Assembly (NCBI GenBank): GCA_021815405.1
Contig: JAKAGV010000007.1
Location: forward strand, 181,888 to 245,887
Direction: 5' to 3'
DNA: 64,000 bases
DNA from: Bacteroidota bacterium
GTDB taxonomy: Bacteria > Bacteroidota > Ignavibacteria > Ignavibacteriales > Ignavibacteriaceae
Each line of letters opens with the position of its first letter. The first letter of the stretch is position 1. Below are positions 9,381 through 38,379 of this stretch, piece after piece. The translations under genes were made by a program, and so were the position numbers. The notes beneath the pieces were generated by a model, which made no database searches, was not told the origin of the DNA, and was given only the letters and a program-made list of their open reading frames with translations.

Positions 9381-10118
9381 TTGCTTATAATTAAACCTCA
9401 TATCTTTAGCAAATTCCCACAGATTATCTTCGGATTCAGTACTAAAATCGGTGCTGAAAGAAAAGCTCCATATTATTTTAATCTTTCGAATTCGGTCGGT
9501 GATGTTAAAGAAATTGTTAATGAAAACCGGAGGTTATTTTTTGAATCACTTAATTTGGAACCGGAAAACATTGCTCTTCAAAAACAAGTTCATGGTGATA
9601 CAATAACCTATGTTTCATCAGGAGGAGAAATTGGCGAAAGCGATGCAATGATTACGGATAAATTTAATATTGCTCTTGGAATAAGTTCTGCGGACTGCGC
9701 TGCAATCTTTATTCTTGATACAAAGGAAAAAGTAATTGCGGCTGTCCATTCCGGGTGGAGAGGAACTGAGAAGAAAATTCTTTTTAAAACGCTTCAAAGG
9801 CTGAAAGTTGATTACAATTCCAGCCCCGAAAATTTAATCGCATATATCGGTCCTTCGATTAGCCAAAAGAATTATGAAGTTGGTAAAGAAGTCGTTGAGC
9901 TTTTTGATGAGAAATATTCTATTGCCTTGGGCGAAAAATATATTTTAAATGTATCTCAGGCTAATTACGACATGCTGCTGAATTTCGGATTATCGAAAAA
10001 CAATATTCAAGTTTCTTCACTCTGTTCTTATGAATTGAACAATGTTCTTCATTCATACCGCAGGGACGGTCTTCATTCCGGCAGAGCTTTGGGTGTAATT
10101 GCAATGAAAAACATTTAA
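9381..10118 (+). CDS. pgeF: Peptidoglycan editing factor PgeF / YfiH (DUF152 polyphenol-oxidase-like)
   Basis: 245 aa. Motifs QVHGD, SADCAAI and HSGWRGT, plus a C-terminal SYRRDG. Confidence 0.8.
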   Translation: MLIIKPHIFSKFPQIIFGFSTKIGAERKAPYYFNLSNSVGDVKEIVNENRRLFFESLNLEPENIALQKQVHGDTITYVSSGGEIGESDAMITDKFNIALGISSADCAAIFILDTKEKVIAAVHSGWRGTEKKILFKTLQRLKVDYNSSPENLIAYIGPSISQKNYEVGKEVVELFDEKYSIALGEKYILNVSQANYDMLLNFGLSKNNIQVSSLCSYELNNVLHSYRRDGLHSGRALGVIAMKNI

Positions 10119-10171
10119 GCAAAAAATATTAAATTGTTTCCCGAATTATTTAATTTAATTTCTAGTTACAA

Positions 10172-10549
10172 ATGTTAAACATTATTCGAATTAAAAAAGC
10201 CGTTTTCTATGCATATCACGGAGTTCTTTCGGAAGAGCAAAGTGTGGGCGGAAAATTTGAAGCTGATGTTGATATTTATACCAACTTCAAAAATGCGGCT
10301 ACAAAAGACAGTTTGAAACAGACAATCGATTACGACAAAGCTTACAAGTATATGTACCAGCTTGCTCTTGAGCAGAAATATTACTTGATAGAAACACTGG
10401 CTACAAGGATTGCCGATGGACTGCTGAATCAATTCCAGCATATTGAAAAGGTTGCGGTGCGAATAAGAAAAAATAATCCTCCGCTTGGCGGCGTTGTTGA
10501 CTGCGTTGAAGTTGAAGTTGTTAAATCCCGGGAAGATCTTGGTCAGTAA
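10172..10549 (+). CDS. folB: Dihydroneopterin aldolase
   Basis: 125 aa. F.AYHGV..EE...GGKFE.DV.. is a typical FolB N-terminus. It is followed directly by folK. Confidence 0.85.
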   Translation: MLNIIRIKKAVFYAYHGVLSEEQSVGGKFEADVDIYTNFKNAATKDSLKQTIDYDKAYKYMYQLALEQKYYLIETLATRIADGLLNQFQHIEKVAVRIRKNNPPLGGVVDCVEVEVVKSREDLGQ

Positions 10550-11042
10550 CATTGCTTATATCGGGCTTGGTTCCAACAAGGGAGATAAATTAAATTATTT
10601 AAGGAAGGCAGTTATCAAATTGAATGAAGGCTCCGCTTCCAAGGTTGTAAAGTCTTCATCAGTATATGAAACAAAGCCATTCGGGTTAAAGAAACAGGAT
10701 AATTTTTTAAATGCGGTTATTAAATTATCGACCGGTAAAAATTATCTTGAATTGATTTATCTACTAAAAAATATTGAAAAAGAACTTGGCAGGAAAGAAT
10801 CGGTTAGATGGGGTCCTAGAGAAATTGATTTGGACCTTTTATTCTTTAATAATTTGATTTATTCTGATGACAAAGTTACTATTCCGCATAAAGGGATAGC
10901 AGATCGTGATTTTGTGCTTGACCCTTTATGCGAAATAGAGGGAGAATTAGTTCACCCTGCATTAAACAAAAAAATTTGTGATATTTGTTCTGGCGTTTCT
11001 GAAAAATTTATAATCAGAAAACTATCCGCAAAAATTTTATAA
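10539..11042 (+). CDS. folK: 2-amino-4-hydroxy-6-hydroxymethyldihydropterin pyrophosphokinase
   Basis: Motifs AYIGLGSN.GD, S.YETKP.G, WGPREIDLDLL and IPH. A likely TTG start at 10539 overlaps the folB stop. The ORF track's 10485 start would overlap folB by 65 nt. Confidence 0.8.
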   Translation: MVSNIAYIGLGSNKGDKLNYLRKAVIKLNEGSASKVVKSSSVYETKPFGLKKQDNFLNAVIKLSTGKNYLELIYLLKNIEKELGRKESVRWGPREIDLDLLFFNNLIYSDDKVTIPHKGIADRDFVLDPLCEIEGELVHPALNKKICDICSGVSEKFIIRKLSAKIL

Positions 11043-11059
11043 AAAAGTGTGAGATTAAA

Positions 11060-11722
11060 TTGAGCGAAAATTCGGAAGTAAAATTCATCTCGATTGAAGG
11101 TGTAATAGGCGCAGGTAAAACTTCGCTTGCACGTAAATTAAAAGAGAGGCTTAATGCACAGTTGATTCTTGAGCAATTTGAGGTCAATCCGTTCCTTGAA
11201 AAATTTTATGGCGATAGAAGGCGATATGCATTCCAGACGCAAATGTTCTTTCTGATAAACCGCTTCAAGCAGCAGGAACAATTGAACCAAGAGAATCTAT
11301 TTACCGAATATATTGTGTGCGATTACCTATTCGAGAAGGATAAAATTTTCGCTTACTTAAACTTAACCGGCGAGGAGCTGAAGCTTTACGAAGCGCTCTT
11401 TCCGCCGTTGGCGCGGAACCTCCGCAAACCTGATTTGGTTGTTTATTTGCAGTCAAGCGTTGATCGTCTAATGTACAACATAAAGAAAAGGAACAGGAAG
11501 ATAGAGAGAAACCTTACGATGAATTACATAGAAGAGTTGAGCGAGGCGTACAACCATTTCTTCTTCAGGTACAATGAAACCCCGCTGCTGATAGTGAATT
11601 CTTCAGAGATTGATTTTGTAAACAGTGATGATGATTTTAATGAATTATTTAAGCAAATATTCAGAGAAGACCGCGGCTTTACTGAGTATTTTAAACCCGA
11701 AACGAGAAGGATAGAAAATTGA
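11060..11722 (+). CDS. Deoxynucleoside kinase family protein
   Basis: 220 aa with P-loop IEGVIGAGKTS and overall dNK/dCK/dGK-like layout. TTG start as given in the track. Confidence 0.75.
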   Translation: MSENSEVKFISIEGVIGAGKTSLARKLKERLNAQLILEQFEVNPFLEKFYGDRRRYAFQTQMFFLINRFKQQEQLNQENLFTEYIVCDYLFEKDKIFAYLNLTGEELKLYEALFPPLARNLRKPDLVVYLQSSVDRLMYNIKKRNRKIERNLTMNYIEELSEAYNHFFFRYNETPLLIVNSSEIDFVNSDDDFNELFKQIFREDRGFTEYFKPETRRIEN

Positions 11723-11934
11723 TATTCGAATTCTTTTTTTGGCTAATTATATTTTACATTTTAATGAAGGCACTTGGTGTTTTTCTGCGGTTCTTTATGC
11801 CGGCTTACCGCGGCTCAGCTCCAAAGCAGTCTCAGCAAAAGCCTAAAACAAGCGAGTCCAAGTATAAGGATGCCGAAGAAGTTGATTTTATCGAGATAAA
11901 AGAGGATAAGAAAACCACGGAAAATAAAACTTAA
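11719..11934 (+). CDS. Small membrane protein (DUF4834-like)
   Basis: 71 aa with one N-terminal TM helix and a charged Lys/Glu tail. Its start overlaps the upstream stop in an ATGA-type 4-nt overlap. Confidence 0.4.
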   Translation: MIFEFFFWLIIFYILMKALGVFLRFFMPAYRGSAPKQSQQKPKTSESKYKDAEEVDFIEIKEDKKTTENKT

Positions 11935-11940
11935 GTAACT

Positions 11941-13044
11941 GTGTGCGGTGGAATGTCGAAGGTAATTTATTGGATAGTTCGGAAGCTGTTTTCGATTAAA
12001 GAAAACAAGAGCCGCGAAATCGGCAGACCTAAAAAAGTTCTTGTCGTTCGTCAGCATAACCAGCTTGGAGATTTGCTTGCAGGGGTGTCGCTTCTTCGTG
12101 CAATAAAAGAAACTTTTCCCAAATGCAGCATTACGCTTATCGTCAGTCCTTCAAACTACCACGGGGTTATAAAGAATAAATTCATCGACAGACTTTTTAC
12201 TTTTGATAAGAAAAAAATATTTAGCCCGGTCTATCTTAAAAGTTTTTTCATCTTGCTACGCGAAGAATATGATTTAGCAATTGTGCCGGTAACGGTTTCG
12301 ATTTCATTTACAAGCAACTTGATAGCAAGATTTTCAAATTGCAAGATTAGGATAGGTGCAAACAGCCTAGACGGTAAACCAAACAAGAGCGCTTTCCTTT
12401 TTGATAGAAGGGTGGATATTGATTGGAGGAAATATCCTGACTCTAACGTTGCTGAAAGAAGCCTGGACGTAGTAAGACCGTTTGGAATAACGACAAGTAC
12501 TTTTAGTACTGAAATATCTTTTGATGAGAAAGATATTTCTTATGCAGAAAAATTCATCTCGGAATTGAAATTAAGTCCGGAAGAATATCTAATCGGATTC
12601 CATGTTGGAGCAGGAAAAATTCCCAACCGATGGTCGTTAAAAAAATATATTCAGCTAATGGAAATGCTGAAGGAGAATTTTCCGCTCAAGTTCTATTTAA
12701 CCGGAAGTTCGGCTGATAAAGAGGAGATTGATTATATAAAAGCAAATTCAAAAATAGAATTTGGTCTTTTCATAAACAGGAAGATTCCGGAGGTGGCGGC
12801 ATTGGTTTCATTATCAGATTTATTCATATCAAACGACACCGGTATAATGCATGTAGCAGGTTCGACAAAAACTCCGCAAGTGTCGCTGTTTGGTCCCACA
12901 AATCCATTTAACTGGGCACCGGTTGGGGATAATAAAAAATTTATCCGTAAATCCGAATTAATTGATGATATTACTGTGGAAGAAGTTTTTGATATGTGTA
13001 CTTCATTATTGAAGAAGAAAGAAAAAGAAGAGCATGCCGCCTAA
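11941..13044 (+). CDS. Glycosyltransferase family 9 (heptosyltransferase-like)
   Basis: LVVRQHNQLGDLL..V.LLRAIKE.FP at the N-terminus and SNDTGIMHVAG near the C-terminus. Confidence 0.75.
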   Translation: MCGGMSKVIYWIVRKLFSIKENKSREIGRPKKVLVVRQHNQLGDLLAGVSLLRAIKETFPKCSITLIVSPSNYHGVIKNKFIDRLFTFDKKKIFSPVYLKSFFILLREEYDLAIVPVTVSISFTSNLIARFSNCKIRIGANSLDGKPNKSAFLFDRRVDIDWRKYPDSNVAERSLDVVRPFGITTSTFSTEISFDEKDISYAEKFISELKLSPEEYLIGFHVGAGKIPNRWSLKKYIQLMEMLKENFPLKFYLTGSSADKEEIDYIKANSKIEFGLFINRKIPEVAALVSLSDLFISNDTGIMHVAGSTKTPQVSLFGPTNPFNWAPVGDNKKFIRKSELIDDITVEEVFDMCTSLLKKKEKEEHAA

Positions 13045-13987
13045 AAACATAGCCGCAATAGATATGGGGACAAATTCTTTTCATCTTGTTATAGCGGAGT
13101 TGAAAAAGAAAGATTCATTTAAGATAATTGACAGGGAAAAGGAAATCATTAGGCTCGGCTCGCACAAAGGTGAAGCGTTAAATTTAATTTCGAAAGAGGA
13201 AACATCGAAAGCAATTGAAGTTTTAAGAAGGTTTAAACAGCTTGCAAGCTACTACAATGCACCTATTAGAGCTGTTGCGACCAGCGCTGTAAGAGAAGCT
13301 TTTAACAGGAATGATTTCATAAGTGCAGTTAAAGAAAATACCGGTCTTCAAGTCGAAGTAATTGACGGACATAAAGAAGCGAATTTAATTTACTTGGGCA
13401 CAAAGAAAGCTCTTGAAATATCCGATAAACGTGTACTTTGCATTGATATTGGCGGGGGAAGTACTGAGTTTGTTCTTGGCGATAACAGTCATCCGGCGTT
13501 TGCGGAGAGCATAAAAATAGGTGCGGTAAGATTGACAAGGAAATATTTCCCTGGGTACATTTTATTTTCTGAACATATTACTGAATGTACAAGTTATATT
13601 GAAGAAGCTATCTCTTCAAATAAAAATATTTGTTTGAATGAGCATATTGAACTTGCCGTAGGTTCATCCGGAACTGTTCAATCAATAGCTTCAATGGTTA
13701 GCTATTTAAGAGACGGATTTCAAATTAAAAATATCAATGGATTTTCTTTTACGGCAGAAGAATTTTTGCAAGTGGCAGAAATTGTGTTAAATAAAAGAAC
13801 ACCAAGAGAACGAATGACGATCGGCGGACTCGAAGCCAAGCGGGCAGATATAATCCCTGCCGGAGTCTTAATTCTTAAAAAGATATTTGAAATGTTTAAA
13901 CTGAAAAGCATGACGGTTTCTGAATACGCTCTCCGGGAAGGAATTATACTGGATATGATTGCGAACAAGGAACAATACTTGAAATAA
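13034..13987 (+). CDS. Ppx/GppA-family phosphatase (exopolyphosphatase-like)
   Basis: AAIDMGTNSFHLVIAE and DIGGGSTEF are ASKHA-fold motifs of Ppx/GppA. Confidence 0.8.
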   Translation: MPPKNIAAIDMGTNSFHLVIAELKKKDSFKIIDREKEIIRLGSHKGEALNLISKEETSKAIEVLRRFKQLASYYNAPIRAVATSAVREAFNRNDFISAVKENTGLQVEVIDGHKEANLIYLGTKKALEISDKRVLCIDIGGGSTEFVLGDNSHPAFAESIKIGAVRLTRKYFPGYILFSEHITECTSYIEEAISSNKNICLNEHIELAVGSSGTVQSIASMVSYLRDGFQIKNINGFSFTAEEFLQVAEIVLNKRTPRERMTIGGLEAKRADIIPAGVLILKKIFEMFKLKSMTVSEYALREGIILDMIANKEQYLK

Positions 13988-14095
13988 AAATTTATTGTTG
14001 ATTTTGATACTAGATTCTGAATTCTAGGTGTAATTCCAACATCAAGTATTTGCTATACAAGTAAGTTTAATTTGTATTATTATTGAAAGCGGTTC

Positions 14096-15652
14096 CTATC
14101 TTGATTTAAGCTTAAATATTGAATCCAGCACGGTACCGTCAACCCACTTTACAATTGCAACAACTTTTTTAAAATCAAACTGCGGTTTTGCCGGCTTGCC
14201 GCAAATTGAATAAACTTCATCTTTAATTTCTCTAATTGATCTGATAGGAAGTGAAGATTTTGACATAGCTTTAATCAAATCTTTTCTTCGTGGATTTATT
14301 GCAATACCTCTTTCAGTGATTACGACGTCGATGAGTTCACCCGGTCCGCAAAGAGTTGTAACTTCATCGATAATAACAGGAATTCTATCGCGAAACGAAG
14401 GCACAGCCAGTATTGAGCACTTAGAGTAAAGGCAGTTTTGCCAACCTCCTATTCCATGAAGTAAGTAACCATCCGAATGGCTGACTACATTTGCATTAAA
14501 GTGCACATCAACTTCAGTAGCGCCAAGAACAGCTACATCAACTATAGATGCAAAATTACCTTTGCCGTGAAAGTTATAACTTGTAAACGGACTTGTGTTA
14601 ACATGGTTAGGATTATCATGCATGCTTCTCACGCCTTCAAGGTCGAAAGTTTGTCCGTCAAGAATGTAATCGGTTAAACCTTCTTCAAGAAGCTGCACTA
14701 AATATTTTGTTGAGCCGCCTCTAACAAAACGTGCTTTAACTCCCTTTGCTTTCATTCTTTCTTTTAAGTAAAGAACGAAAGCGAGATTCGTTCCACCAGA
14801 GCCTGCCTGGAATGAAAATCCATTTTTCATAATGCCGGCTTCATCAATAAACTGGGCGACGTATTCTGCAATCAAAAGTCTGTCCGGAGATTTAGTAACT
14901 TGAGTAGTTCCGGAAACGATTTTAGATGAGTCTCCAAGCGAATCAACTTGGACAACATAATCGACATTGTTGCCCTGGATCTGCCACGGGATACAAGGGA
15001 AAGGAACAAGGTTATCGGTAACAACAATGACTTTATCTGCATACTCGGAATCTACAAGAGCAAAGCCGATAAGTCCGGATGCAGATTTTCCGTTTACACC
15101 ATTTGCATTTCCAAAAGTGTCTGCTGTTGGGGCTGCGATTACTGCTATATCAATGTGCACTTCACCGTCTTGAACTGCCTGGTATCTTCCTCCATGAGAA
15201 CGCAAAACTCCAATGCCTTTCATCTTTCCTTCTGAAGTATATCTGCCAAGCGGTCCATTCATGCTTCCTTCGATATGATGGATTGTTCCGTCCTCAAGAT
15301 ATTTTATCAAGTGTTCGTGTATAGGAAAAGAAGCACTTGGAAACCAGCGGATGTTTTTTATTCCTAACTCATGTATTACATCAAATAAATAATTTGTCAG
15401 CGCATCACCATCTCTCAAATGATGATGAGTCGAAATTGTCATTCCGTTTTTTATTCCGGCTTTCTTTAAAGCTTCTTTTAAATTTCTGACAATTTTGTTT
15501 CCGTCTTCAGGATAATTTACGCAGGATTTTATAGATGGTTTAGCTTTGGTGCCTTCCGGTTCGTACTTGTTTACTCCTTTGAAAGGGATTTGCTTATGGC
15601 CGTTGACTTCCGAAGGTACCAATCTGCCTGCTGCGTTCTTTATTAATTTCAT
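14096..15652 (-). CDS. citF: Citrate lyase alpha subunit (citrate CoA-transferase)
   Basis: 518 aa, the CitF length. STHHHLRDGD motif. The start codon abuts the stop of the CitE-like gene. Confidence 0.8.
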   Translation of the reverse strand: MKLIKNAAGRLVPSEVNGHKQIPFKGVNKYEPEGTKAKPSIKSCVNYPEDGNKIVRNLKEALKKAGIKNGMTISTHHHLRDGDALTNYLFDVIHELGIKNIRWFPSASFPIHEHLIKYLEDGTIHHIEGSMNGPLGRYTSEGKMKGIGVLRSHGGRYQAVQDGEVHIDIAVIAAPTADTFGNANGVNGKSASGLIGFALVDSEYADKVIVVTDNLVPFPCIPWQIQGNNVDYVVQVDSLGDSSKIVSGTTQVTKSPDRLLIAEYVAQFIDEAGIMKNGFSFQAGSGGTNLAFVLYLKERMKAKGVKARFVRGGSTKYLVQLLEEGLTDYILDGQTFDLEGVRSMHDNPNHVNTSPFTSYNFHGKGNFASIVDVAVLGATEVDVHFNANVVSHSDGYLLHGIGGWQNCLYSKCSILAVPSFRDRIPVIIDEVTTLCGPGELIDVVITERGIAINPRRKDLIKAMSKSSLPIRSIREIKDEVYSICGKPAKPQFDFKKVVAIVKWVDGTVLDSIFKLKSR

Positions 15653-16879
15653 TTATTTTTCTTTCCAGTCTTCATCCAACAAATTATTTAAGACAGCTAA
15701 ATGAATTGTCCTCTGTGCTCGTTTAACAACCGGTGCGTCGATCATTTTTGTTCCAATTGAAACAACGCCTATTCCTTTACGTTCTGCCTCTTCAAAGGCG
15801 AGAACAATCTTTTTAGCTTTTTCTATTTCTTCCGCAGCCGGTTCAAAATATTTATGAACAACCGGAATTTGTCTTGGGTGAATGCAGCCCTTTCCTTCAA
15901 AGCCAAGTGACTTAGCTTCAATTACACTCTGTTTCAATCCTTCTATATCACCAACATCAGAAAAGACTGTATCTATGGCTTGAATACCAGCCGCCTTTGC
16001 TGCATTAACAATCATTGAACGAGCAAAGAAACTTTCTTTTCCTTCCAAAGTTCTTTGCGTTCCAATGTCGGCGGTATAATCTTCAAGTCCAATTGTAAGT
16101 GCACAGTTACTTTTAACTGCGGAGGCAATTTCATAAGCTTTAACGATTCCAAGTGCACTTTCGATAATCGGCATCAAGAATACTTCGCTCTTAATATTAT
16201 TTTCATGCCGAATTCTTTTTATTTGATCATCGACTTCAATTACCTGCTCGGCGTTTTCGCACTTTGGAATAAGTATAACATGAACATTATGAGGAACGAC
16301 GAATTCCAAATCTTCCAAGCCAAGCGGCAACTGGTTTATTCTTACCATTCTTTCTGAACTGTAAAAATCAACGCTGCGCAACGCATTCCTAACGAGAACT
16401 CTTGCAGCGTCTTTTTCAGAAGGAGCCACGCTATCTTCTAAGTCCAGAATTATTCCATCCGGTTTATGTAGACCGGCATTTAGAAAAAATTTTGGTTCAT
16501 TACCCGGAAGATAAAGCCTGCTTCTTCGAAGCTTATCTTTGGAGGAGGTGTATAAATTATTTTTATTGAATGGAAGTAAAAATTCTTTTTCGTTTTCCGG
16601 GAACAATTTTTTTACGGCAAGTTCAAACCTTGAAGCAATAACAAATGGGAGAGCACCGTAATCTTCGAAAAAGACCTTTGCATTTTTTATTTCAAAGAAC
16701 CTGCACATTTCATCTACTTGTTCTTTGATTGATCCCCCATAAAGAGAAGCAACTTTGCTCTTTAACTCTAATTTTATTCCGCCGGAGTTGGTTAGTTCAA
16801 TTTCGAAATAACAATCGGAACGAATATTTTCCCCGCGATGCCCGGCTGAGGATTTTTGGTTCTGTGTTTTCATAATCAT
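15653..16879 (-). CDS. Fused citrate lyase acyl-carrier (gamma, CitD-like) and beta (CitE, citryl-CoA lyase) subunits
   Basis: 408 aa. The first ~95 aa resemble CitD (SAGHRGENIRSD... and ...DYGALPFVIASRFELAVKK). The remaining ~300 aa are HpcH/HpaI-CitE-like (RSRLYLPGNEPKF, DLEDSV, GLEDYTADIG). Confidence 0.7.
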   Translation of the reverse strand: MIMKTQNQKSSAGHRGENIRSDCYFEIELTNSGGIKLELKSKVASLYGGSIKEQVDEMCRFFEIKNAKVFFEDYGALPFVIASRFELAVKKLFPENEKEFLLPFNKNNLYTSSKDKLRRSRLYLPGNEPKFFLNAGLHKPDGIILDLEDSVAPSEKDAARVLVRNALRSVDFYSSERMVRINQLPLGLEDLEFVVPHNVHVILIPKCENAEQVIEVDDQIKRIRHENNIKSEVFLMPIIESALGIVKAYEIASAVKSNCALTIGLEDYTADIGTQRTLEGKESFFARSMIVNAAKAAGIQAIDTVFSDVGDIEGLKQSVIEAKSLGFEGKGCIHPRQIPVVHKYFEPAAEEIEKAKKIVLAFEEAERKGIGVVSIGTKMIDAPVVKRAQRTIHLAVLNNLLDEDWKEK

Positions 16880-16883
16880 TTAT

Positions 16884-18335
16884 CTAGAAGATTAATTTAT
16901 CCATGAAATCTTTTGCTGTCTTCTTTTCACATTTGAAAATCAAGTTTTTGATTTCTTTTTGTCTTTGTTTGGAAATTAAGCCATCAGACAATGAGATAAA
17001 TTTATTTTCTAGATCTTCAATAGTCATCGGCTCCCTGGGATCGCCTTTTGGAAATTCAATATATTCCGAAAATTCTTTCCCGTCTTTTGTTTTGATAGTT
17101 ACTTTTGACGGCTGTTTGGCGGGGAACATTTTTTCAAATTCCGTTGATGCTTCTCCTTTAATTTTCTTAATCACTTCCCAGATTCTGGGATCTTTCAATT
17201 TTTCTTCTGAAAAAGATTGAGTTGTTATTTTATGATCAACAATTGCGGCGGCAATGCAGTAGGGAAGTGAATGATCTGCAGTCTCTCTTGATTCAGGATG
17301 ATACTTATGAGGATCGAAGAGAATGTCGCAAGCTCGTGCAATTGTAGCTACTTTTATCGAATCAATTTGATCATAAGTAATATCATTGTTAATCACGGTT
17401 TTTAATGCAGCAGTAATGTGAGTATGTGTCAGAGCTTCTGTTGGAAATGCTTTCATGCTGCATTCAAGAATTTTAAAATCATTTCCAAGATTTCCAATTA
17501 ATTTTTCAATATTCCATTTCCATTCTTCAGACATATCTCTTCCGTGCATCGTAATTGGATTTACTTTTTCGTTCTTAGTATCCCAGCCAAAAAAACAATC
17601 CATAAATCCTTCTTTACCTTCGAAGACTGCTTCTGTCCCGGTGTATCCTTGCTTAGCCATTAGAGCAGCGAAAACACCGGATTGAACAGCCATTGGATCG
17701 ACAGTATTTTTCATCATCGTCAATTTACCCGCAGTTGGAGCGCCAATTGTGTAATTGTGGCTTCCGCTAATTCCAATTGCGTTTACCATTTGGTCTACGG
17801 TTAATCCTAGAAGTTTTCCTGCAACAACAGGAGAAACAAACTGAGTTAATGTAGCGTGATGCCATTTCCTTTCGCGGATTCCTGGAACGGCGAACTCGCA
17901 AAGCCTTTGTTCAAATTCATAACCAAGTACAATTGCGGTGATAACATCTTTCATTGAGGCATCAACAAGCTCACCAACCGCAAGGGCTGCAGGTATTAAA
18001 TCCGAAGGATGTGAAGGATCTTCTTTCCAATAAACATCATTATAATCGAGAGCCCGAATCATTAAAGAATTTATTAAAGCAACGTTGACAGCCGGCAGCT
18101 TATCTCCAAAGCCAATTAATGTTGCTTCTTTACTCCCTCGTATTTTTTTATAAATATCTTTGAGGATTTTTACATCCTTAGTTTGACTGCCGCCGAAAGC
18201 ACAGCCTATTGAATCATACAGAAATTTTTTTGCAGTCTCAACCACCTCTAAGGGCAGATCAATGTATTTCAGATTTACTGCGAATTCTGAAATTGTTCGA
18301 GAAATTGATTTATTCATAATCTGGATTTTATCCAT
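16884..18335 (-). CDS. MmgE/PrpD-family protein (2-methylcitrate dehydratase-like)
   Basis: 483 aa, the typical PrpD-family length, with N-terminal F..NL.Y.DLP.EVV...K....DSIGCAFGG. Confidence 0.8.
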   Translation of the reverse strand: MDKIQIMNKSISRTISEFAVNLKYIDLPLEVVETAKKFLYDSIGCAFGGSQTKDVKILKDIYKKIRGSKEATLIGFGDKLPAVNVALINSLMIRALDYNDVYWKEDPSHPSDLIPAALAVGELVDASMKDVITAIVLGYEFEQRLCEFAVPGIRERKWHHATLTQFVSPVVAGKLLGLTVDQMVNAIGISGSHNYTIGAPTAGKLTMMKNTVDPMAVQSGVFAALMAKQGYTGTEAVFEGKEGFMDCFFGWDTKNEKVNPITMHGRDMSEEWKWNIEKLIGNLGNDFKILECSMKAFPTEALTHTHITAALKTVINNDITYDQIDSIKVATIARACDILFDPHKYHPESRETADHSLPYCIAAAIVDHKITTQSFSEEKLKDPRIWEVIKKIKGEASTEFEKMFPAKQPSKVTIKTKDGKEFSEYIEFPKGDPREPMTIEDLENKFISLSDGLISKQRQKEIKNLIFKCEKKTAKDFMDKLIF

Positions 18336-20299
18336 CCTTCCAAACCACCCGCAACAATTAATTCCTGCGCGGCTTTGCCAACCGGATCAAAGTAATATTT
18401 TGAAGCGTTGCCATTTTTTAGCGGTTTATTCATTTTTATTTCTGAATTCTTAAAATTAATTGAAACATTAAAATTTGTTTTAACGGTAAGTTTTTCCTTT
18501 CCAAATTTTAATTTCAAATCCATAATCAATTGGGGACACTCAATCAACATAAATCCGTTATTAAATGCATTCCGCTTGTAGGTTTCATTGAATGATCCGG
18601 CAATGACAAGTTTAATTCCTTTATACTTTAATGCAGTTGCAGCTTGTTCGCGTGAACTTCCCGTCCCGAAATTAAAGCCTCCGGCAAGAACATTTCCTTC
18701 CTGAGCAATATTTACAAACTGCGGATCATAATTTTCCATTACAACTTGCGCTTGTTGTTCAGGTGAGATGTCATCAACATATGTATATTTTCCGGGATAA
18801 ATTCCATCTGTGTTTAAGTTGTCCTGATGACAAAAGATAATTTCTCCTTCAATCGTTTCGGGGAATCCATTTATAATTTCAGTTTTAGAAATTTTCCCGT
18901 TCGTTTTTTTGTTTGATTTTATATCCGCAAAGATTTTTCCCGGACTGTATTCCCATGAGTAATCAATCTTACCTGAAATTGCCGAAGCAGCAACAACAGC
19001 CGGAGAAGCTAAATAAGTTGTTGCCATAGGCGATCCCATTCTACCCTTGAAATTTCTATTGGTTGCTGAAATACCTACTTCACCATCTTTCAGCAATCCT
19101 TCGCCTAATCCGATGCAAGGTCCGCAGCCTGGAGGCAAAGGAATAGCGCCTGCATGGATTAAAGCCTGCCAATCACCGCGTCTTTCACTCTCAGCCTGAA
19201 CTTCGCTTGATGCTGCGGCAACATACAATTTTACATGGGATGCAATTTTCTTTCCTCTTACAACTGCGGCAGCTTCTGCTAAATCATTGACTCTGCTGTT
19301 TACACAGGAGAGTAGAAATGCCTTATCAATTCTAATTTCTTTTGATTTTAATTCTGACAAAGAAAATACATTTTTAACAGAATCAGGTCCGGCTACCGTA
19401 GGCTGTACAGAAGATAAATCAACAATTATTTCTTTATGATAAAATGCATCGTTATCTGCTTTGCAGATATTTTGTTCCAGTTTTGAGATCCTCTGTAAAT
19501 TTAATCTTGGATGAACTACTTTATTATTTTCATTTGATGAAATAGGAAATTTCTTATTTGAAAGCTTTGCAGCTCTTTCCTTAAGCCATTGAATTGTTAA
19601 TTCATCAATAGAGAAAACACCAGCAAGAGCGCCCCACTCCGTCGTCATGTTTGCAATTGTAAGGCGGTTCTCAATCGACAAAGATTTTACACCATCGCCG
19701 GTAAATTCAATTCCGCAGTTAAGAACTTCATCGTTATTGAAATGTCCGCAAAGGGAAATTATTAAATCTTTTCCAGATACGCCTTCTCTCAGTTTCCCTT
19801 TAAGAATTACGTTTACAATTGGAGGGACCTGCCACCATGTTTTTCCTGTAGCCCAAATAGCAGCAGCATCTGTTCTAACAACCGGAGTTCCGAGGCAGCC
19901 TAATCCTCCGTACATATTTGAGTGGCTATCTGATGCTACAACCATTTTACCCGGAAAAGCATAGCCTTCTTCGCATAGTATCTGATGTCCTATTCCTCTG
20001 CCTGCGGAATAAAAATCAGCTCCCATTGACTTGGCAAACTCTTCAATCTTTTTATACTTGTCCAGGTTCTTATCGCTTTTATTTTGAATATCATGATCAA
20101 GTGCGATAACTACTTGTTTTGGATCTGCCAATTTTTTTGCCCCAATACTTTTGAATTTTGGAATAACAGCACCGGTATTGTCGTGTGTCATTACATAAGC
20201 AGGTTTTATTGTTAAATAATCTCCGCTTCGGACTTCATGATTTTTATCTAAACCTGTAGCAAATCGTTGTGCGATTTTTTCAATCAATGTTTGTGACAT
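18314..20299 (-). CDS. Aconitase-family hydro-lyase, fused large+small (swivel) domains (homoaconitase/aconitase-like)
   Basis: Contains ASDSHSNMYGG and the Fe-S cluster Cys region CGPCIGLG, plus a C-terminal LeuD-like GSSREQAA. The likely ATG is at 20299 (MSQTLIEKI) with a GGGAGA upstream. The track start at 20329 is a GTG. Confidence 0.75.
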   Translation of the reverse strand: MSQTLIEKIAQRFATGLDKNHEVRSGDYLTIKPAYVMTHDNTGAVIPKFKSIGAKKLADPKQVVIALDHDIQNKSDKNLDKYKKIEEFAKSMGADFYSAGRGIGHQILCEEGYAFPGKMVVASDSHSNMYGGLGCLGTPVVRTDAAAIWATGKTWWQVPPIVNVILKGKLREGVSGKDLIISLCGHFNNDEVLNCGIEFTGDGVKSLSIENRLTIANMTTEWGALAGVFSIDELTIQWLKERAAKLSNKKFPISSNENNKVVHPRLNLQRISKLEQNICKADNDAFYHKEIIVDLSSVQPTVAGPDSVKNVFSLSELKSKEIRIDKAFLLSCVNSRVNDLAEAAAVVRGKKIASHVKLYVAAASSEVQAESERRGDWQALIHAGAIPLPPGCGPCIGLGEGLLKDGEVGISATNRNFKGRMGSPMATTYLASPAVVAASAISGKIDYSWEYSPGKIFADIKSNKKTNGKISKTEIINGFPETIEGEIIFCHQDNLNTDGIYPGKYTYVDDISPEQQAQVVMENYDPQFVNIAQEGNVLAGGFNFGTGSSREQAATALKYKGIKLVIAGSFNETYKRNAFNNGFMLIECPQLIMDLKLKFGKEKLTVKTNFNVSINFKNSEIKMNKPLKNGNASKYYFDPVGKAAQELIVAGGLEGWIKSRL

Positions 20300-20324
20300 A
20301 TTCATTCTCCCATTGTCATTATGA

Positions 20325-20342
20325 ATCACGATTTATCGTGAT
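20325..20342. promoter_or_regulatory. Perfect 8-2-8 palindrome ATCACGAT-TT-ATCGTGAT upstream of the aconitase-family gene
   Basis: Read directly from the sequence. It lies 26-43 nt upstream of the 20299 start, inside the 137-nt HD-to-aconitase gap. The 2-nt loop is too tight for an RNA hairpin, so a protein operator is more likely. Confidence 0.3.
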
Positions 20343-20436
20343 GTAACAATCTATAATTTTATTTGAATTTTAAAGTTCTCTTTATTCCTTGCTTAATGAA
20401 TTTATCAAATCTTTATTATTTGAATAATCTGTAATT

Positions 20437-20967
20437 CTATTTGAACGATTCGAAACTGACAAAGTCTGCGTGATGAACAATTAAAGATTCTACGGTACGT
20501 TTTCCCAAATCTCCTTCATGTGAATGTGTTGCAATAATATGTTGAACCTCCGGCGGAATGCCGAATCTATCTGCAACAGCTAATCCGCTGAATGGATGAC
20601 GAACTAGTTTACCAGCTTCACTTGTAGTGAGTTTTCCGTTTCTTATTTCGTATTCAAGAAGCTTCCCAATGTCAATTAAGATTGCGCCGGCAATCAGAAC
20701 ATCCATATCGATTTTCATTTCATCTCCAAAATTTTGTTTCATCACTTTTGCCATTTCCGCAGCTAGTTGAACAGTCGTCCGCTTATGGATAATAAATGAA
20801 ATCTTACAATCTTTAACCAGTAAGGAAAAAGGAATCGTTTTCAAGTCATCAATAGTAAGGACGCTATTGTCTAATGCATAAATCCAGCAATTTAAAACTT
20901 TTTCCTTTAAGTCATTATTTTGAATCCAGTTTATTTCCGGCCAGATTTCTAATATTTCTTTTTTCAT
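20437..20967 (-). CDS. HD-domain metal-dependent phosphohydrolase-like protein
   Basis: 176 aa with H...HD-type residues (IIHKRT..., LIDIGK, RHPFSG, ATHSHEGD). Confidence 0.55.
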   Translation of the reverse strand: MKKEILEIWPEINWIQNNDLKEKVLNCWIYALDNSVLTIDDLKTIPFSLLVKDCKISFIIHKRTTVQLAAEMAKVMKQNFGDEMKIDMDVLIAGAILIDIGKLLEYEIRNGKLTTSEAGKLVRHPFSGLAVADRFGIPPEVQHIIATHSHEGDLGKRTVESLIVHHADFVSFESFK

Positions 20968-21064
20968 ATTTAGCTCAAGAGATTAAATTTGCATTATTAC
21001 CAATATGAAGTTTCAGATTGCTAAATTGCTTCATAATTAAAAGAACAATTTAACAATTGATCGG

Positions 21065-22243
21065 CTAAACAATTTTCTTAATAATTTCGTCCGTTATCTG
21101 TTGTGTTGTTGAAGCTCCTTTTGAAAAAACATCCGGACCTCCTTTTAACTTCATCATGTCGTAAGTTTTAACTTTTCCTTCTTCTATTACCTTTGCAACA
21201 GCGTTTCTTATTTTCTCCGCTTTTAAATTTTCTCCCAGATGATCAAGCATCATGCAGGCGCTGAGTATCATTGCAATTGGATTTACAATTGATGGATGAA
21301 GTTCCTGATATTTTGGTGCTGATCCGTGTGTAGGTTCAAATATTGCAACATCTTTGCCGATGTTTGCACTGCATGCAAATCCAAGTCCGCCTACAAGACC
21401 GGCGAAGCCGTCACTTATGATGTCGCCAAACATATTTTCTGCAACAATTACTCCGTAAATTTCAGGATTCTTTGTCAACCACATCATTTGTGCATCGATG
21501 TTGGTATCCCAGAGATCGATGTTGGGATATTCTTTAGATATTATTTTTGCTTCATTCAGCATCATACCAGAGGTTTCACGCAAGACGTTCGGCTTTTCAC
21601 AGACTGTTACATTTTTATAGCCAAATCGTTTTGCATAATCAAAAGCTTCTCTTAGTATTCTTCTGCATGCTGGTCTGGATACTATTCTTGTGGATATTGC
21701 CAGGTCTTCACCGGGTACATCTTTAAATGCTTTCATCTTCGGATGAGTTTCCAACGCATCCCGAACAGTTTTCGGTGGATTTGTCCATTCCACGCCGGAG
21801 TAAAGACCTTCGGTATTCTGTCTGAAGATAACGACATTCACATCAGGTTCTTCGAAACTTTCATCTTTTCTTCTAATAAAATTAAGTGGGTTGCCTTTAA
21901 AGGATTTGCATGGACGAATACAAATATCAAGGTTGAAGTGCTGTCTCAGTCCCACTATCGGGCTGAAATAATTATATCCTTTTCCTTGCAGCGAAGCATC
22001 AAGCTCCTGACCTGCAGCATCTTTCGGCTTACTGGTTATTGCACCAAACAAACCGACTTTATGTTTTTCAAGAAGGTCAATCGTTCTTTGTGGAAGCGCA
22101 TTTCCTTCTTTACACCAAAACTCCCAGCCGATATCAGCATGAACATATTCTGCTTCAAAACCAACTGCGGCTAGGATCTTCAATGCTTCCGGTAGAACAG
22201 TTTTTCCTATTCCATCACCGGGCATAGTAACAATAGTTTTCAT
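21065..22243 (-). CDS. Isocitrate/isopropylmalate dehydrogenase-family oxidative decarboxylase
   Basis: N-terminal MPGDGIGKTV, then NLDICIRPC, FRQNTEGLYSG, GDIISD and EPTHGSAPK motifs. The ATG at 22243 (MKTIV) is preferred over 22258. Confidence 0.8.
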   Translation of the reverse strand: MKTIVTMPGDGIGKTVLPEALKILAAVGFEAEYVHADIGWEFWCKEGNALPQRTIDLLEKHKVGLFGAITSKPKDAAGQELDASLQGKGYNYFSPIVGLRQHFNLDICIRPCKSFKGNPLNFIRRKDESFEEPDVNVVIFRQNTEGLYSGVEWTNPPKTVRDALETHPKMKAFKDVPGEDLAISTRIVSRPACRRILREAFDYAKRFGYKNVTVCEKPNVLRETSGMMLNEAKIISKEYPNIDLWDTNIDAQMMWLTKNPEIYGVIVAENMFGDIISDGFAGLVGGLGFACSANIGKDVAIFEPTHGSAPKYQELHPSIVNPIAMILSACMMLDHLGENLKAEKIRNAVAKVIEEGKVKTYDMMKLKGGPDVFSKGASTTQQITDEIIKKIV

Positions 22244-22306
22244 GAGGTAGATCCCCAATGATTATGAACAAATAATTATTTGACTCAAACTTATGCTAAA
22301 AAGAAA

Positions 22307-22347
22307 TTGAATTCAACAATAATTATGTTATTGAATTTAGATTCAAT
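22307..22347. promoter_or_regulatory. Two palindromic sites sharing a TTGAAT half-site, in the divergent promoter region
   Basis: TTGAATTCAA at 22307-22316 and ATTGAAT-TTAG-ATTCAAT at 22330-22347. They lie between the IDH-family operon and the hybrid kinase gene. Confidence 0.25.
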
Positions 22348-22442
22348 TTTTATAAATTAGCGAAAAAAATTTTGTGAATTATATTAACTTTCAAGTATTA
22401 TATTCTATTGACTCATAATTTACTATCAGCTGTATTATTCAA

Positions 22443-25400
22443 TTGAAAAAAAATATCAGCAACAATCAAAAATATAACGAGCGGGAGCTAGAAGAATTCG
22501 AAGGTCTTCTAAAAAAACTCATTGCCGAAAACAAGATTCCTGAAAGTTTTAACAGTATTGCTGAAAACCTTTCATCAATTGTTTCTTCATATAAAAAAGA
22601 ATTTGAAACTCATAAACTAATTCTTGAAACTTCGGTTGATGTTATCTTTAAGATTACTCAAGCCGGCGAAATTATATCTATCGGAGAAAAGTGTAAGGAT
22701 ATTTTCGGATACGGTCCGGATGAATTAACAAACAAATTTATTACCAGTTTTATTCCTTCAACAGAATTAAAAAAAGCTTTAAAAATTTTCACAAAGCTTT
22801 TTAAGGAAAAGAAAGTAAAGAATGAGGTCGTTTCTTTAAAACATAAAAACGGGCAGTTAATTCCTATTGAACTGACTGCAATGGTAATTAAGCAGGACGG
22901 GAAATATATTGCCCAGGGAATATTGCATGAGCTAAGCGAGCGTTATAAAGTTGAAGCCAACACAGATATTTCGGATAGTATTTTCAAAAATGTTTGGGAA
23001 AAATCTTCAAACGGAATGTGCCTTGCCGATGAAAACGGTTATGTTTTTATGTGCAACACTGCTTATTCCAAAATCTTCAGTAAAGACAAAATTGAAATTG
23101 AACATCAACTTATTACAAATGTTTTATCCGATAGTACGGCTGATACTGTCTTAAGCGATTACACTAAAAATTTCAATGATCATTCTTTCCCAAGCAGTAT
23201 TGAAAAAAAATATGAGTTGTGGAACGGCACTGCAGTAGATTTTGAAGTAAGCTATTCTTTTATTGAAGGTGTAGGAGATAAAACACTTTTACTTATAATT
23301 TTTAAAGATATTTCTCTCAGAAAAGCAAGCGAAATTCATGCAAAGAAGAGGGACAACTTGCTTCAAGGAATTGCAGCGGCTACACAAAGACTTATTTCTA
23401 CAAATGATCCGGAAATCGGATTCTCTTCTGCCTTAAAAATACTTGGCGAAGCTGTCAAAGTAAACCGGGCTTACATTTATAAACATAAATCCGTAGAAGA
23501 TACCGGCGAAATGTACGTTAGTTTGCTTTATGAATGGACGTCTGAAGATACGGAACATCAAATTGAAAATATTGAACTGCAGAAACTATCTTACTCCCGA
23601 TTCGAATCTTTGAGATTCTACGATGCATTCTCCAACGGCAAGCCTCTTAGTTTTGTAATGAAAAATTTGTCCGAAGAAGAACGCCTTCTATTCATCGATA
23701 AAAATATTAAATCGATTATACTTGCACCGATCATGGTTGACGGACTTTATTGGGGCTTTCTTGGATTCGACGATTGTGAAACTGACAGGGAATGGACACC
23801 GAATGAAGGATCACTTTTGGTAACTATGGCTTCAATGCTTGGTGCTGTAATCAAGAGGAATAATATTCAGGACGAGCTAATAAAAAAGAATGCCGAACTT
23901 GACGCAGCAATAGTTAAAGCAGAAGCTGGAACTAAGGCTAAAAGCGAATTCCTTGCTTTGATGAGCCACGAAATTAGAACTCCAATGAACGGAGTAATCG
24001 GAATGACGGGGCTCCTTTTAGATACTGATTTAAGTGATGAGCAAAGAGAATATGTTGAAACAATCCGTCTCAGCGGTGATCATCTTTTAGTAATAATAAA
24101 TGATATATTGGACTTCTCTAAGATCGAATCAGAAAAATTAGAACTTGAAATGCAGCCTTTCGATCTGAAAGATTGTGTCGAAGACTGCCTTGATTTATTG
24201 GCTTCAAAAGCGGGCGACAAAGGTCTTGATCTTGCTTACTTGATTGAAAATAATACTCCTCAAACTATTTTTGGCGATGTTACAAGGCTTAAACAAATTA
24301 TTACCAATCTTCTTAACAATGCAATCAAGTTTACCGAAAAAGGCGAAGTCTTTCTTTCTGTTTCTTCCAAAGAGATTAACAATAATAAATTCGAAATTCA
24401 ATTCTTTGTTAAAGATACCGGCATAGGAATTCCAGAGGATAGGATTGACAGATTATTCAAGGCGTTCAATCAGGTAGATGTTTCTACAACAAGAACACAT
24501 GGCGGTACGGGACTTGGATTAGTAATTAGCAAACGACTTTCCGAGATGATGAGCGGAAAAATGTGGTTCGAAAGCAAGTACGGTGCAGGTTCTACTTTTT
24601 ATTTTACAATTATTGCTGAGCAAGCTCCTTCCAAATCAAAAATATATTTGAAAGGTAAAGCAATCGAGCTTGAAGGCAAGAAAGCTTTAATAGTGGATGA
24701 TAATGCTACGAACAGAAGAATCTTAAAAATGCAGACAGGCAACTGGGGTATGCAGCCCTATGTTGTTGAATCTCCGCTTGATGCAATTAGACTGATGAAT
24801 AACGGAGAAGACTTTGACATAGCTATTTTAGATTATCATATGCCGGTTATGAACGGCGTGGAGCTTACAAAAGAAATCCGTAACACTCCAAAGGGAAAAA
24901 ATCTTCCTGTTGTAATTTTAACATCGATAGGTAAAAGAGAAGCCGACGGAGATTTTAACAATTTGAATTTAGCCGCATTTATTACTAAGCCTGTTAAACA
25001 AGTTCAGCTTTATGATTGTCTTACTTCAATCTTATCCGGTAAAGAAAAAGTACAGTCCAATATTCCTAAGAATGAAGTAAAACTAGATACGGAATTGGGG
25101 CATCGAATGCCACTCAGAATTCTTTTAGCAGAAGACAATGTTGTAAATCAAAAGGTTGCTACTAGAATTTTGGAAAGGCTGGGATTCAGAGCAGATGTTG
25201 CTGCAAACGGGTTTGAGGTAATTGAGGCAATCAAAAGAATAAATTATGATATTATCTTTATGGATATTTTTATGCCCGAAATGGACGGCTATGAAGCTAC
25301 AAAATATATCCTGGATAATTATAAAAATGATGAGAGACCAAAAATAATTGCAATGACGGCGAATGCTATGCAGGGTGATAAAGAAAAATGCCTTGAAGCC

Positions 25401-25904
25401 GGAATGGATGATTACATCGGTAAACCTGTGCGTGTTGAAGAGCTTCAGGCATCACTGCAGAAGTGGGGATTAATTATTTACGACGATAAAAATTCCAGGC
25501 TTGCTGTAGATGAAAGTAAGCAAACGTCTTTCAAATATGTTGATGAAGGTAAAATTGATTTAATCCAGGATATAAAATCCTCCGAAGATTTAAATTTCTT
25601 TATAGAGCTGCTCGATATTTATATTAAAGATTTGCCATTAAGCATTGCAAGAATTAAAAATGCTGTGGTTCAAAGAGATAAGAATCAGATCAGATTTTAT
25701 GCACACAAACTGAAAGGAAGCAGTCTTACCTTTGGAATACGCGCAATATCAGATAAATGTATCAAGATAGAAGAAGCAGTTAAACAAGATATTGATAATC
25801 CTCGTACGGCTGATTTAGTTGAAGAGCTTATAGTAAAATTTGAAGTAGTTATAAAAGAACTGGAACAACTGAAAGAAAAATATAGTCACATGTCCTTCTC
25901 ATAA
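22443..25904 (+). CDS. Hybrid sensor histidine kinase (PAS-PAS-GAF-HisKA-HATPase-REC-REC-HPt)
   Basis: 1153 aa. H-box [12 protein letters not shown] and G-box GGTGLGL. Two receiver domains ([11 protein letters not shown] and [11 protein letters not shown]) and a C-terminal HPt (AHKLKGSS). Confidence 0.85.
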
Positions 25905-36664: not shown

Positions 36665-36669
36665 TATTT

Positions 36670-38346: not shown

Positions 38347-38379
38347 TTAACTAAATTATAACTAAAAATTTCTTTAACT

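Follow-up and report, generated by a model that had tools for sequence, protein, structure and literature searches.

A conserved six-gene cluster of Ignavibacteria and related bacteria that may encode a homocitrate-level pathway with a citrate-lyase-type complex

Introduction

Which tricarboxylate is handled by an operon that joins the subunits of a citrate-lyase-type complex to members of the aconitase, isocitrate dehydrogenase (IDH) and PrpD families and to an HD-fold protein? The question is raised by a six-gene cluster of an Ignavibacteriaceae genome (Bacteroidota bacterium, assembly GCA_021815405.1, contig JAKAGV010000007.1), located at positions 14,096 to 22,243 of the whole stretch of 64,000 nucleotides that was analysed, hereafter the window. 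The genome of the window (G000) is 99.98% complete, and labels such as G031 to G046 denote other genomes. A preliminary description of this DNA had reported six genes on the minus strand, and the listing of open reading frames (ORFs) placed all six as follows, with lengths in amino acids (aa):

14096..15652, minus strand: CitF-type alpha subunit (acyl-carrier / CoA transferase), ORF of 518 aa, PF04223 and TIGR01584
15653..16879, minus strand: fusion of CitD (acyl carrier) and CitE (lyase beta subunit), ORF of 408 aa, PF06857 and PF03328
16884..18317, minus strand: MmgE/PrpD-family protein of 477 aa, PF03972 and PF19305 (ORF 16884-18335, 483 aa)
18314..20299, minus strand: fused aconitase-family hydratase, Lys4-type homoaconitase-like, 661 aa from Met11 (ORF open from GTG 20329, 671 aa)
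20437..20967, minus strand: HD-fold protein of 176 aa with a degenerate HD dyad (L-I-D-I-G-K), TIGR00277
21065..22243, minus strand: homoisocitrate-dehydrogenase-like enzyme of the IDH/isopropylmalate dehydrogenase (IPMDH) family, 392 aa (ORF open from TTG 22258, 397 aa)

The six genes are proposed here to form a single pathway operating at the level of homocitrate, a C7 tricarboxylate, and leaning towards cleavage, which would be an undescribed route. The chance that this proposal is correct is considered to be about even, and a homocitrate-level pathway as such becomes fairly probable when the variant running in the synthetic direction is counted with it. No published description of the six-gene module was found in the open literature; what is new is a variant assembled from known enzyme families.

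Conservation of the cluster and its two sub-modules

The six-gene arrangement is conserved far beyond chance. Among 80 genome loci and 80 metagenome loci fetched from an alignment of the PrpD-like protein, all six genes were found in 24 genome loci, 21 of them with the order and strand of the window, and in 15 metagenome loci, 14 of them in the window's order, many of the loci without the full set being short contigs. By record title, the genome loci belong to Ignavibacteria, Melioribacteraceae, Calditrichota, Marinimicrobia/Fidelibacterota, Zixibacteria, KSB1, Eisenbacteria and Acidobacteriota. The metagenome scan, which was aimed at distant lineages, mostly returned the same family of the Fibrobacteres-Chlorobi-Bacteroidetes (FCB) group, and the PrpD-like protein is 60-85% identical across most FCB lineages sampled. 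In five of five genomes from other phyla whose PrpD-like locus was without CitF, this gene was located elsewhere, and one Marinimicrobia contig carried the CitD-CitE, CitF, HD and hydratase genes about 10 kb away from the dehydrogenase and PrpD-like genes.

The distribution of the genes divides the cluster into two parts, sub-module A, composed of the hydratase and the dehydrogenase, and sub-module B, composed of the HD protein, the PrpD-like protein, CitD-CitE and CitF. Among 41 relatives, the PrpD-like protein and CitF were both found in 28 and neither was found in nine, the four discordant genomes being only 61-89% complete; CitF was present in 29 of the 41, and was above its cut-off in only one of 14 control genomes. 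In the high-quality relatives the genes of sub-module B were always found together, and none of the relatives examined had B without A. In two genomes, G035 and G037, the hydratase and dehydrogenase pair was kept and no PrpD-like protein, CitF or HD orthologue was found. The G037 hydratase and dehydrogenase are 67% and 77% identical to the window proteins, respectively, and in the tree the G037 dehydrogenase nests within a clade, supported at 100/99, of module-bearing Melioribacter-type orthologues, so that it is itself an orthologue and no separate paralogue.

The HD gene follows the same division, since its distribution tracks the PrpD-like protein and CitF, not the hydratase and dehydrogenase pair. 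HD orthologues (at least 296 bits) were found in all three module-bearing genomes tested, but not in any of eight genomes that lack the PrpD-like protein and CitF, including G035 and G037, in which only generic HD matches of 22-33 bits appeared. The preliminary description had remarked that an HD protein is not a usual partner of these enzymes, which holds for the known pathways; within the present module it is a conserved component, and among the 36 loci that contain both genes, 30 have the HD gene directly upstream of the hydratase gene.

A different form of the lyase is found in Calditrichota, where three loci (L057, L089 and L095) have CitF encoded on the opposite strand, together with a regulator of the TrmB family and a protein of the citryl-CoA-lyase type, after which come the HD, dehydrogenase and PrpD-like genes. 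CitD-CitE is replaced there by this short protein of the citrate-synthase fold, which scored 281.7 bits against the citryl-CoA-lyase cut-off of 245, and the HD protein thus also accompanies a carrier-free form of the complex.

Predicted specificities of the six proteins

The hydratase, in which the Aconitase and Aconitase_C domains of Pfam are fused, gave the clearest indication of the substrate level. It scored 844.3 bits in the NCBIfam model of fungal-type homoaconitase (TIGR00139), against a cut-off of 529.9 that was passed in none of the 14 control genomes, Thermus, Deinococcus and M. jannaschii included. Its best match in the PDB was the large subunit of the M. jannaschii homoaconitase (260 bits), followed by isopropylmalate isomerase (233 bits). 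The residues C342, C402 and C405, presumably the cluster-binding ligands of this family, and the stretch G557-S-S-R-E561, which we take to be the substrate motif, were invariant in 24 sequences, as was the specificity loop of the small domain, Y-T-Y-V. By these comparisons the hydratase stands on the homoaconitase/LeuCD side of its family, apart from the aconitases, and it is probably a homoaconitase-like enzyme, predicted to hydrate cis-homoaconitate to homoisocitrate.

The dehydrogenase matched PF00180 in Pfam (272 bits), and its best NCBIfam models were those of the methanogen homoisocitrate dehydrogenases AksF2 (284.4 bits) and AksF (282.7 bits), while its PDB matches ranked an NAD-dependent IDH (6lky, 207 bits) above the Thermus homoisocitrate dehydrogenase (HICDH, 184 bits) and IPMDH (147 bits). 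The substrate loop reads F-S-P-I-V-G-L-R, with S-P-I-V conserved among homologues. At the positions of Ser113 and Asn115 of IDH, which we assume to bind the gamma-carboxylate of isocitrate, the serine is retained and the asparagine is replaced by isoleucine, the genome's own IDH reading S-L-N-V. Because an isoleucine occupies the place of the isocitrate-binding asparagine, the dehydrogenase is unlikely to be an isocitrate enzyme, although the loop by itself is no proof of a homoisocitrate enzyme either. A Marinimicrobia genome of 2.5 Mb (G046, of locus L058) was observed to hold the module dehydrogenase as the sole PF00180-family gene found, so that either the isocitrate dehydrogenase of its tricarboxylic acid (TCA) cycle comes from a different family or parts of the genome are missing from the assembly.

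The PrpD-like protein comprises both MmgE/PrpD domains, N-terminal (PF03972) and C-terminal (PF19305), and failed every PrpD equivalog model, with 71-97 bits against cut-offs of 458-950 (for example, 97.3 against 575 in NF006943, and 71.2 against 458 in TIGR02330). Among PDB structures it matched cis-aconitate decarboxylase (CAD) with 105 bits, iminodisuccinate epimerase with 86 bits and PrpD with 34-56 bits. Six of the eight residues that we take to form the active site of human CAD (CAD/IRG1) are retained, the equivalents of T97 and H277 being valine and glutamate, respectively. By analogy with the PrpD step of the methylcitrate cycle, this protein is proposed to be a (de)hydratase interconverting homocitrate and cis-homoaconitate.

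The lyase complex is represented by CitF, which scored 464 bits in PF04223 and passed the cut-off of TIGR01584 (516.7 against 501.45 bits), and by the CitD-CitE fusion, in which an acyl carrier protein domain (PF06857, 47 bits, above cut-off) spans residues 21-91 and an HpcH_HpaI domain (PF03328) spans residues 119-335. The carrier motif A-G...R-S-D-C, with Ser21, was retained in 35 of 37 CitD sequences, and this serine would be the counterpart of Ser14 in the CitD of Klebsiella. The enzymes that equip the known carrier were searched for in G000: CitG, CitX (PF01874, PF03802) and PF10620 gave zero matches, MdcG was likewise not found, and the CitC family (PF08218) gave only a match of 21.6 bits in an ORF of 161 aa, which is no real CitC. 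Moreover, no CitG was found among the 41 relatives searched. A conserved carrier serine is therefore accompanied by no known machinery for loading its prosthetic group, which would be a clear puzzle for biochemistry if the proposed pathway is correct.

The HD protein had no match in Pfam and scored 35.6 bits in the HDIG model TIGR00277. Its AlphaFold model (pLDDT of 91.5) matched generic folds of the HD superfamily in Foldseek, the best being YhaM with an E value of 5.7e-5, and a search of the protein atlas with this protein returned only clusters named HD-domain protein. The HD fold is thus predicted with the His-Asp dyad of phosphohydrolases missing: the histidine of the dyad is replaced by isoleucine, or by alanine in more distant homologues, in all 38 homologues listed. 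Other His, Asp and Glu residues form a conserved set, and H61, D99, H124, H143, H148, H165, H166 and D168 were invariant in 28 HD sequences. The protein may be an accessory factor of the lyase, for which priming of the carrier is a conceivable role; a role limited to CitD is argued against by its presence beside the carrier-free form of Calditrichota.

Other enzyme sets and lysine routes in G000 and its relatives

The preliminary description had asked for a second set of aconitase and IDH genes and for a citrate synthase in the same genome, and these were found: G000 holds a canonical aconitase (contig C29, a frame of 774 aa), an NADP-type IDH (C17) and two citrate synthases, all separate from the cluster. 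It also holds a leucine operon (C12) with leuB, leuC and two HMGL-like synthase genes. Since the TCA genes and the leucine operon are present separately, the cluster is a third enzyme set that belongs to neither pathway.

Lysine synthesis in G000 follows the diaminopimelate (DAP) route, as indicated by DapA (305 bits, above cut-off) and LysA (492 bits). No LysX above the cut-off of TIGR02144 was detected in this genome, a tblastn search with the operon proteins of G033 and G031 detected neither LysW nor LysX in it, and its only tblastn matches to homocitrate synthase, at 28-31%, were to genes of the leucine operon. A replacement of lysine biosynthesis by the cluster in G000 was considered and rejected, given the presence of DapA and LysA and the failure to find LysW and LysX. 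Among the 41 relatives, DapA was above cut-off in 28 and LysA in 35, whereas LysX was above cut-off in only five (G031, G033, G035, G037 and G039), which belong to a single family and none of which has DapA above cut-off.

In two of these, G031 and G033, an operon encodes LysW, a homocitrate-synthase-like HMGL protein, LysX, LysY, the [LysW]-aminoadipate kinase (LysZ) and a LysJ-like transaminase, at about 8500-14800 of locus L197 (G031:C38:52500-72499) and about 8500-14500 of locus L198 (G033:C18:55000-74999). The kinase scored 249 bits against a cut-off of 223, and the homocitrate-synthase-like protein, with 342-350 bits, did not reach the TIGR02146 cut-off of 413. This operon contains neither an aconitase-family gene nor one of the Iso_dh family, and both genomes carry the complete six-gene module in the window's order. 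In G033, which is 99% complete, PF00330 has just two members, one a canonical aconitase and the other orthologous to the module hydratase, and the single PF00180 member is the orthologue of the module dehydrogenase. If the lysine pathway of G033 works, the hydratase and dehydrogenase of the module would consequently be its homoaconitase and homoisocitrate dehydrogenase. Adjoining the LysW operon are the nuo operon and a gene for a fused 2-oxoglutarate dehydrogenase. A comparable situation is described for the genome of Caldithrix abyssi in the part of its report drawn on here, with a LysWXZYJ+Hcs locus and other pathway homologues scattered, some of them in TCA loci, and said there to require further analysis (PMC5317091).

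Proposed pathway and its relation to known systems

In the proposed route, the dehydrogenase would interconvert 2-oxoadipate, CO2 and NAD(P)H with homoisocitrate, the Lys4-type hydratase would interconvert homoisocitrate with cis-homoaconitate, and the PrpD-like protein would catalyse the other half-reaction, between cis-homoaconitate and homocitrate. To our knowledge, this second half-reaction has not been found in Lys4-type enzymes. Homocitrate would then be cleaved to 2-oxoglutarate and acetate by CitF as transferase, CitE as lyase and CitD as carrier. The net conversion would be 2-oxoadipate + CO2 + NAD(P)H <-> 2-oxoglutarate + acetate + NAD(P)+, with no ATP and no free CoA ester consumed. 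Sub-module A would also serve lysine synthesis through aminoadipate in related genomes, B having been added onto it, and in G000 the route would run mainly towards cleavage, disposing of 2-oxoadipate. The families of the genes, their conservation, their joint occurrence and their genomic setting are observations; all substrates, the direction and the part played by the HD protein are inferred.

The need for a PrpD-type enzyme can be rationalized by stereochemistry. Fungal Lys4 hydrates cis-homoaconitate only and leaves the other half of the isomerisation to aconitase. In the methylcitrate cycle, PrpD dehydrates the product of an si-type synthase that aconitase cannot accept. Citrate lyase has (pro-3S) specificity, which makes it si-type, and the homocitrate analogue of an si-type lyase would be the (S)-enantiomer, opposite to the (R)-homocitrate of biosynthesis. 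A lyase acting on (S)-homocitrate would therefore explain why a PrpD-type enzyme travels with it.

As a tentative extension, which is thought somewhat less probable than the pathway itself, the module may provide a disposal of 2-oxoadipate derived from lysine or aminoadipate that is independent of O2, ATP and free CoA esters, employing two activities that have no Enzyme Commission (EC) number, with the HD protein as a new factor that takes over from the missing CitC, CitG and CitX in priming or maintaining the lyase.

The closest known system is the upper part of the alpha-aminoadipate pathway of fungi (Lys20/21, aconitase, Lys4 and Lys12) and Thermus (Hcs, HacAB and Hicdh), with which the module shares a Lys4-type fused hydratase and a dehydrogenase of the same family, and, in the fungal case, an isomerisation divided between two enzymes. 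It differs in that the cluster has no homocitrate synthase and carries a citrate-lyase-type complex in its place, that the position of the fungal aconitase is filled by a PrpD-family protein and an HD protein is added, and that G000 is devoid of the LysW/LysX lower pathway. The citrate lyase CitDEF (EC 4.1.3.6) of Klebsiella and E. coli and the citramalate lyase of Clostridium tetanomorphum share with it the CitF, CitE and CitD domains and the carrier serine motif. In the module, however, CitD is fused to CitE, CitC, CitG, CitX and MdcG were not found, and homocitrate-type enzymes stand alongside instead of genes for citrate transport or oxaloacetate decarboxylase.

The methylcitrate cycle (PrpC, PrpD, aconitase and PrpB) likewise relies on a PrpD-family and an aconitase-family enzyme for the two-step isomerisation of a substituted citrate, but the PrpD-like protein of the cluster fails the PrpD models and the last enzyme is a decarboxylating dehydrogenase instead of a methylisocitrate lyase. 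Finally, the CcsAB/Ccl system of Hydrogenobacter resembles the Calditrichota variants, which combine CitF with a citryl-CoA-lyase-type protein, whereas the window uses the carrier form (CitD-CitE) and has no ATP-dependent ligase in the cluster.

Weighing of the proposed pathway against its alternatives

Several observations weigh against a homocitrate-level pathway directed to cleavage. At the level of the enzymes, the dehydrogenase is below the HICDH cut-offs (540 for AksF2 and 500 for AksF), and it carries a valine at the position of Arg85 of the Thermus HICDH, a residue that we take to be a specificity determinant and whose lack separates the module from the Thermus pathway; the equivalents of R88, R98 and S72 are retained. 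The Y-T-Y-V loop of the hydratase is without the arginine of the methanogen homoaconitase loop, Y-L-R-T. The PrpD-like protein resembles cis-aconitate decarboxylase more closely than PrpD and could itself be a decarboxylase. Both lyase components other than CitF fall short of their equivalog cut-offs, CitE with 298.2 against 443.4 bits in TIGR01588, so that only the broad HpcH_HpaI family is reached, and CitD with 42.8 against 63.5 bits in TIGR01608.

At the level of the genome, the search for a source of 2-oxoadipate had no success in G000, where the C-terminal domain of saccharopine dehydrogenase (PF16653) had no match; this domain was found in 17 of the 41 relatives in a pattern unrelated to the module. 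G031 and G033 hold both a homocitrate-synthase-like gene and the lyase, which would create a futile cycle unless the two are regulated or stereochemically separated. The missing arginine of the hydratase loop is weak evidence, because an isopropylmalate-type small subunit of Pyrococcus can substitute for the homoaconitase small subunit of Thermus, according to the portion of that study drawn on here (PMC7308503).

The first alternative keeps the same intermediates and reverses the direction, with the acetyl-carrier and 2-oxoglutarate giving homocitrate and then 2-oxoadipate in the absence of homocitrate synthase and acetyl-CoA. Sub-module A would serve the formation of 2-oxoadipate in the LysW-type relatives, and an oxidative decarboxylation generally pulls that way. 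Nevertheless, those relatives already own a homocitrate-synthase-like gene, G035 and G037 manage without sub-module B, and G000, with DapA and LysA present, has no known consumer of 2-oxoadipate. In addition, the equilibria of lyases favour cleavage at millimolar concentrations. Because LysW, LysX and a close homocitrate synthase were not found in G000, cleavage is clearly favoured there over synthesis, which is judged unlikely.

A similarly low probability is assigned to the use of another pair of 2-oxoacids, for example a route through (S)-citramalate connecting pyruvate and acetate with 2-oxobutyrate and CO2, or an isopropylmalate-type route. It would suit the hydrophobic I-V of the dehydrogenase loop and the lack of an arginine in the small-domain loop of the hydratase, and the clostridial citramalate lyase has the same three-subunit design. 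A CstA-family transporter gene, moreover, is inserted in the operon of some Ignavibacteria, lying between the dehydrogenase and HD genes in seven of the 80 genome loci (L022, L026, L028, L030, L038, L048 and L086) and between the dehydrogenase and hydratase genes in G037 (L202:9364-10998). Its best NCBIfam model, that of a pyruvate/proton symporter, was far below cut-off, and its presence in the operon of relatives might hint at a monocarboxylic 2-oxoacid, which also counts against homocitrate. On the other hand, the hydratase passes TIGR00139, the orthologues of both enzymes are the sole homoaconitase and HICDH candidates in G033, both proteins are overall nearer to homo(iso)citrate than to isopropylmalate enzymes, and the two HMGL-like genes in the leucine operon of G000 may already supply LeuA and a citramalate synthase.

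A citrate-level function is very unlikely. The preliminary description had offered it as the first of two possibilities, a branch from 2-oxoglutarate through citrate to oxaloacetate and acetate, and it would make the complex a true ATP-independent citrate lyase serving citrate fermentation or an unconventional reductive TCA cycle. Both of these uses were proposed for Ignavibacterium album by Liu et al. (2012) from its CitF and CitE-CitD genes (IALB_1146/1147), while the genes adjoining citrate lyase are left undiscussed in the portion of that paper drawn on here (PMC3362086). The passing of the citF equivalog cut-off by CitF, the Marinimicrobia PrpD-like gene that follows sdhCDAB and the above-cut-off citryl-CoA-lyase gene paired with CitF in Calditrichota point the same way. 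However, canonical citrate synthases, aconitase and NADP-IDH are encoded separately in G000, the dehydrogenase has isoleucine for the asparagine equivalent to Asn115, the hydratase falls on the homoaconitase/LeuCD side, a PrpD-type step would be superfluous for citrate, and CitC, CitG and CitX were not found.

The second possibility of the preliminary description, a route for a citrate analogue, gains support and is narrowed to the homocitrate level by the TIGR00139 result and the LysW-type relatives. It had also been said that a placement of the enzymes in leucine or lysine biosynthetic clades, with the other pathway genes elsewhere, would refute the interpretation. The enzymes do fall in the homoaconitase/HICDH group, but G000 lacks the remainder of the lysine pathway through aminoadipate, and for this reason the cluster is not simply a fragment of lysine biosynthesis.

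Equally improbable as the citrate-level function is a pair of unrelated functions, in which A would act on homocitrate intermediates, B would be a lyase for a different acid and the PrpD-like protein a decarboxylase or epimerase, as the occurrence of A alone in G035 and G037 and the resemblance to cis-aconitate decarboxylase (six of eight presumed active-site residues) would allow, given that no relative examined had B in the absence of A, that the two are interleaved in a single operon whose gene order recurs in 21 + 14 loci from several phyla, and that HD, of B, directly precedes the hydratase, of A, in 30 of 36 loci.

Gene layout and neighbourhood of the cluster

The junctions of 97, 137, -22, 4 and 0 nt given in the preliminary description were reproduced with the earlier start codons, except that the true overlap of the PrpD-like gene is probably smaller. 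Its homologues are 477 aa long, and its start is therefore probably at 18317, with an overlap of 4 nt with the hydratase gene instead of 22. The start of the dehydrogenase, read directly from the sequence, is the ATG at 22243, and Met11 of the hydratase, at 20299, was invariant in the 24 sequences. No terminator-like site was found on the minus strand within the cluster, the four sites found being all on the plus strand. The region upstream of the operon is the following:

22244..22442, no strand assigned: AT-rich intergenic region, probably containing the promoter region of the operon, common with a divergent hybrid histidine-kinase gene

Promoter-like matches in this region were generic and not above the number in shuffled sequence. 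The divergent gene (22443-25904, plus strand) encodes a hybrid histidine kinase of 1153 aa with PAS, GAF, HisKA, HATPase, two receiver stretches and Hpt, a family also found near the operon in four other loci. Downstream, at 29704-39899, a cluster of multihaem cytochrome and porin-type genes with c7-type repeats was observed. Four DNA sequencing runs, all from one study, contain the stretch, and no RNA run containing it was listed.

Gaps of the operon in relatives contain Phd/YoeB and HEPN/nucleotidyltransferase pairs, genes of the 23S-rRNA-intervening-sequence type (bAvd-like) and PD-(D/E)XK genes, at L021, L023, L024, L026, L030, L047, L048, L069, L086 and others, while the operon of the window is free of them. 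These genes were set aside as pathway members and treated as selfish insertions. In L067, of the FCB group, a fused 2-oxoacid dehydrogenase E1 gene (296-2290) precedes CitDE at a distance of 6 nt, and the PrpD-like gene is followed by that of an acyl-CoA dehydrogenase (10592-11818), which scored 231 bits in the glutaryl-CoA dehydrogenase model against a cut-off of 470. The two genes may connect the 2-oxoacid of the module with an acyl-CoA route, but neither was used as evidence, both being generic and the E1 gene standing at the contig edge.

Significance

If the proposed pathway is correct, a module of central metabolism that lies outside textbooks and pathway databases would be widespread in bacteria of sediment, soil and the subsurface, its carriers including Ignavibacteria, Melioribacteraceae, Calditrichota, Marinimicrobia, Zixibacteria and some Acidobacteriota. 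The two activities without EC numbers would be a homocitrate/cis-homoaconitate hydro-lyase of the PrpD family and a carrier-protein-dependent homocitrate lyase, possibly (S)-specific, and a bacterial relative of fungal Lys4 would be added to its family. For Melioribacter-like and Caldithrix-like bacteria, the two enzymes so far missing from the LysW-type lysine pathway, homoaconitase and homoisocitrate dehydrogenase, would be identified.

The LysW operon in Ignavibacteriales that have no DapA above cut-off also bears on published claims that such bacteria are unable to synthesize lysine. Genes of the DAP pathway are reported as missing from Ignavibacterium album in the part of Liu et al. (2012) drawn on here (PMC3362086). 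Moreover, the "citrate lyase" of Ignavibacterium would gain a function, and its use as evidence of CO2 fixation through the reverse TCA cycle would become unsafe.

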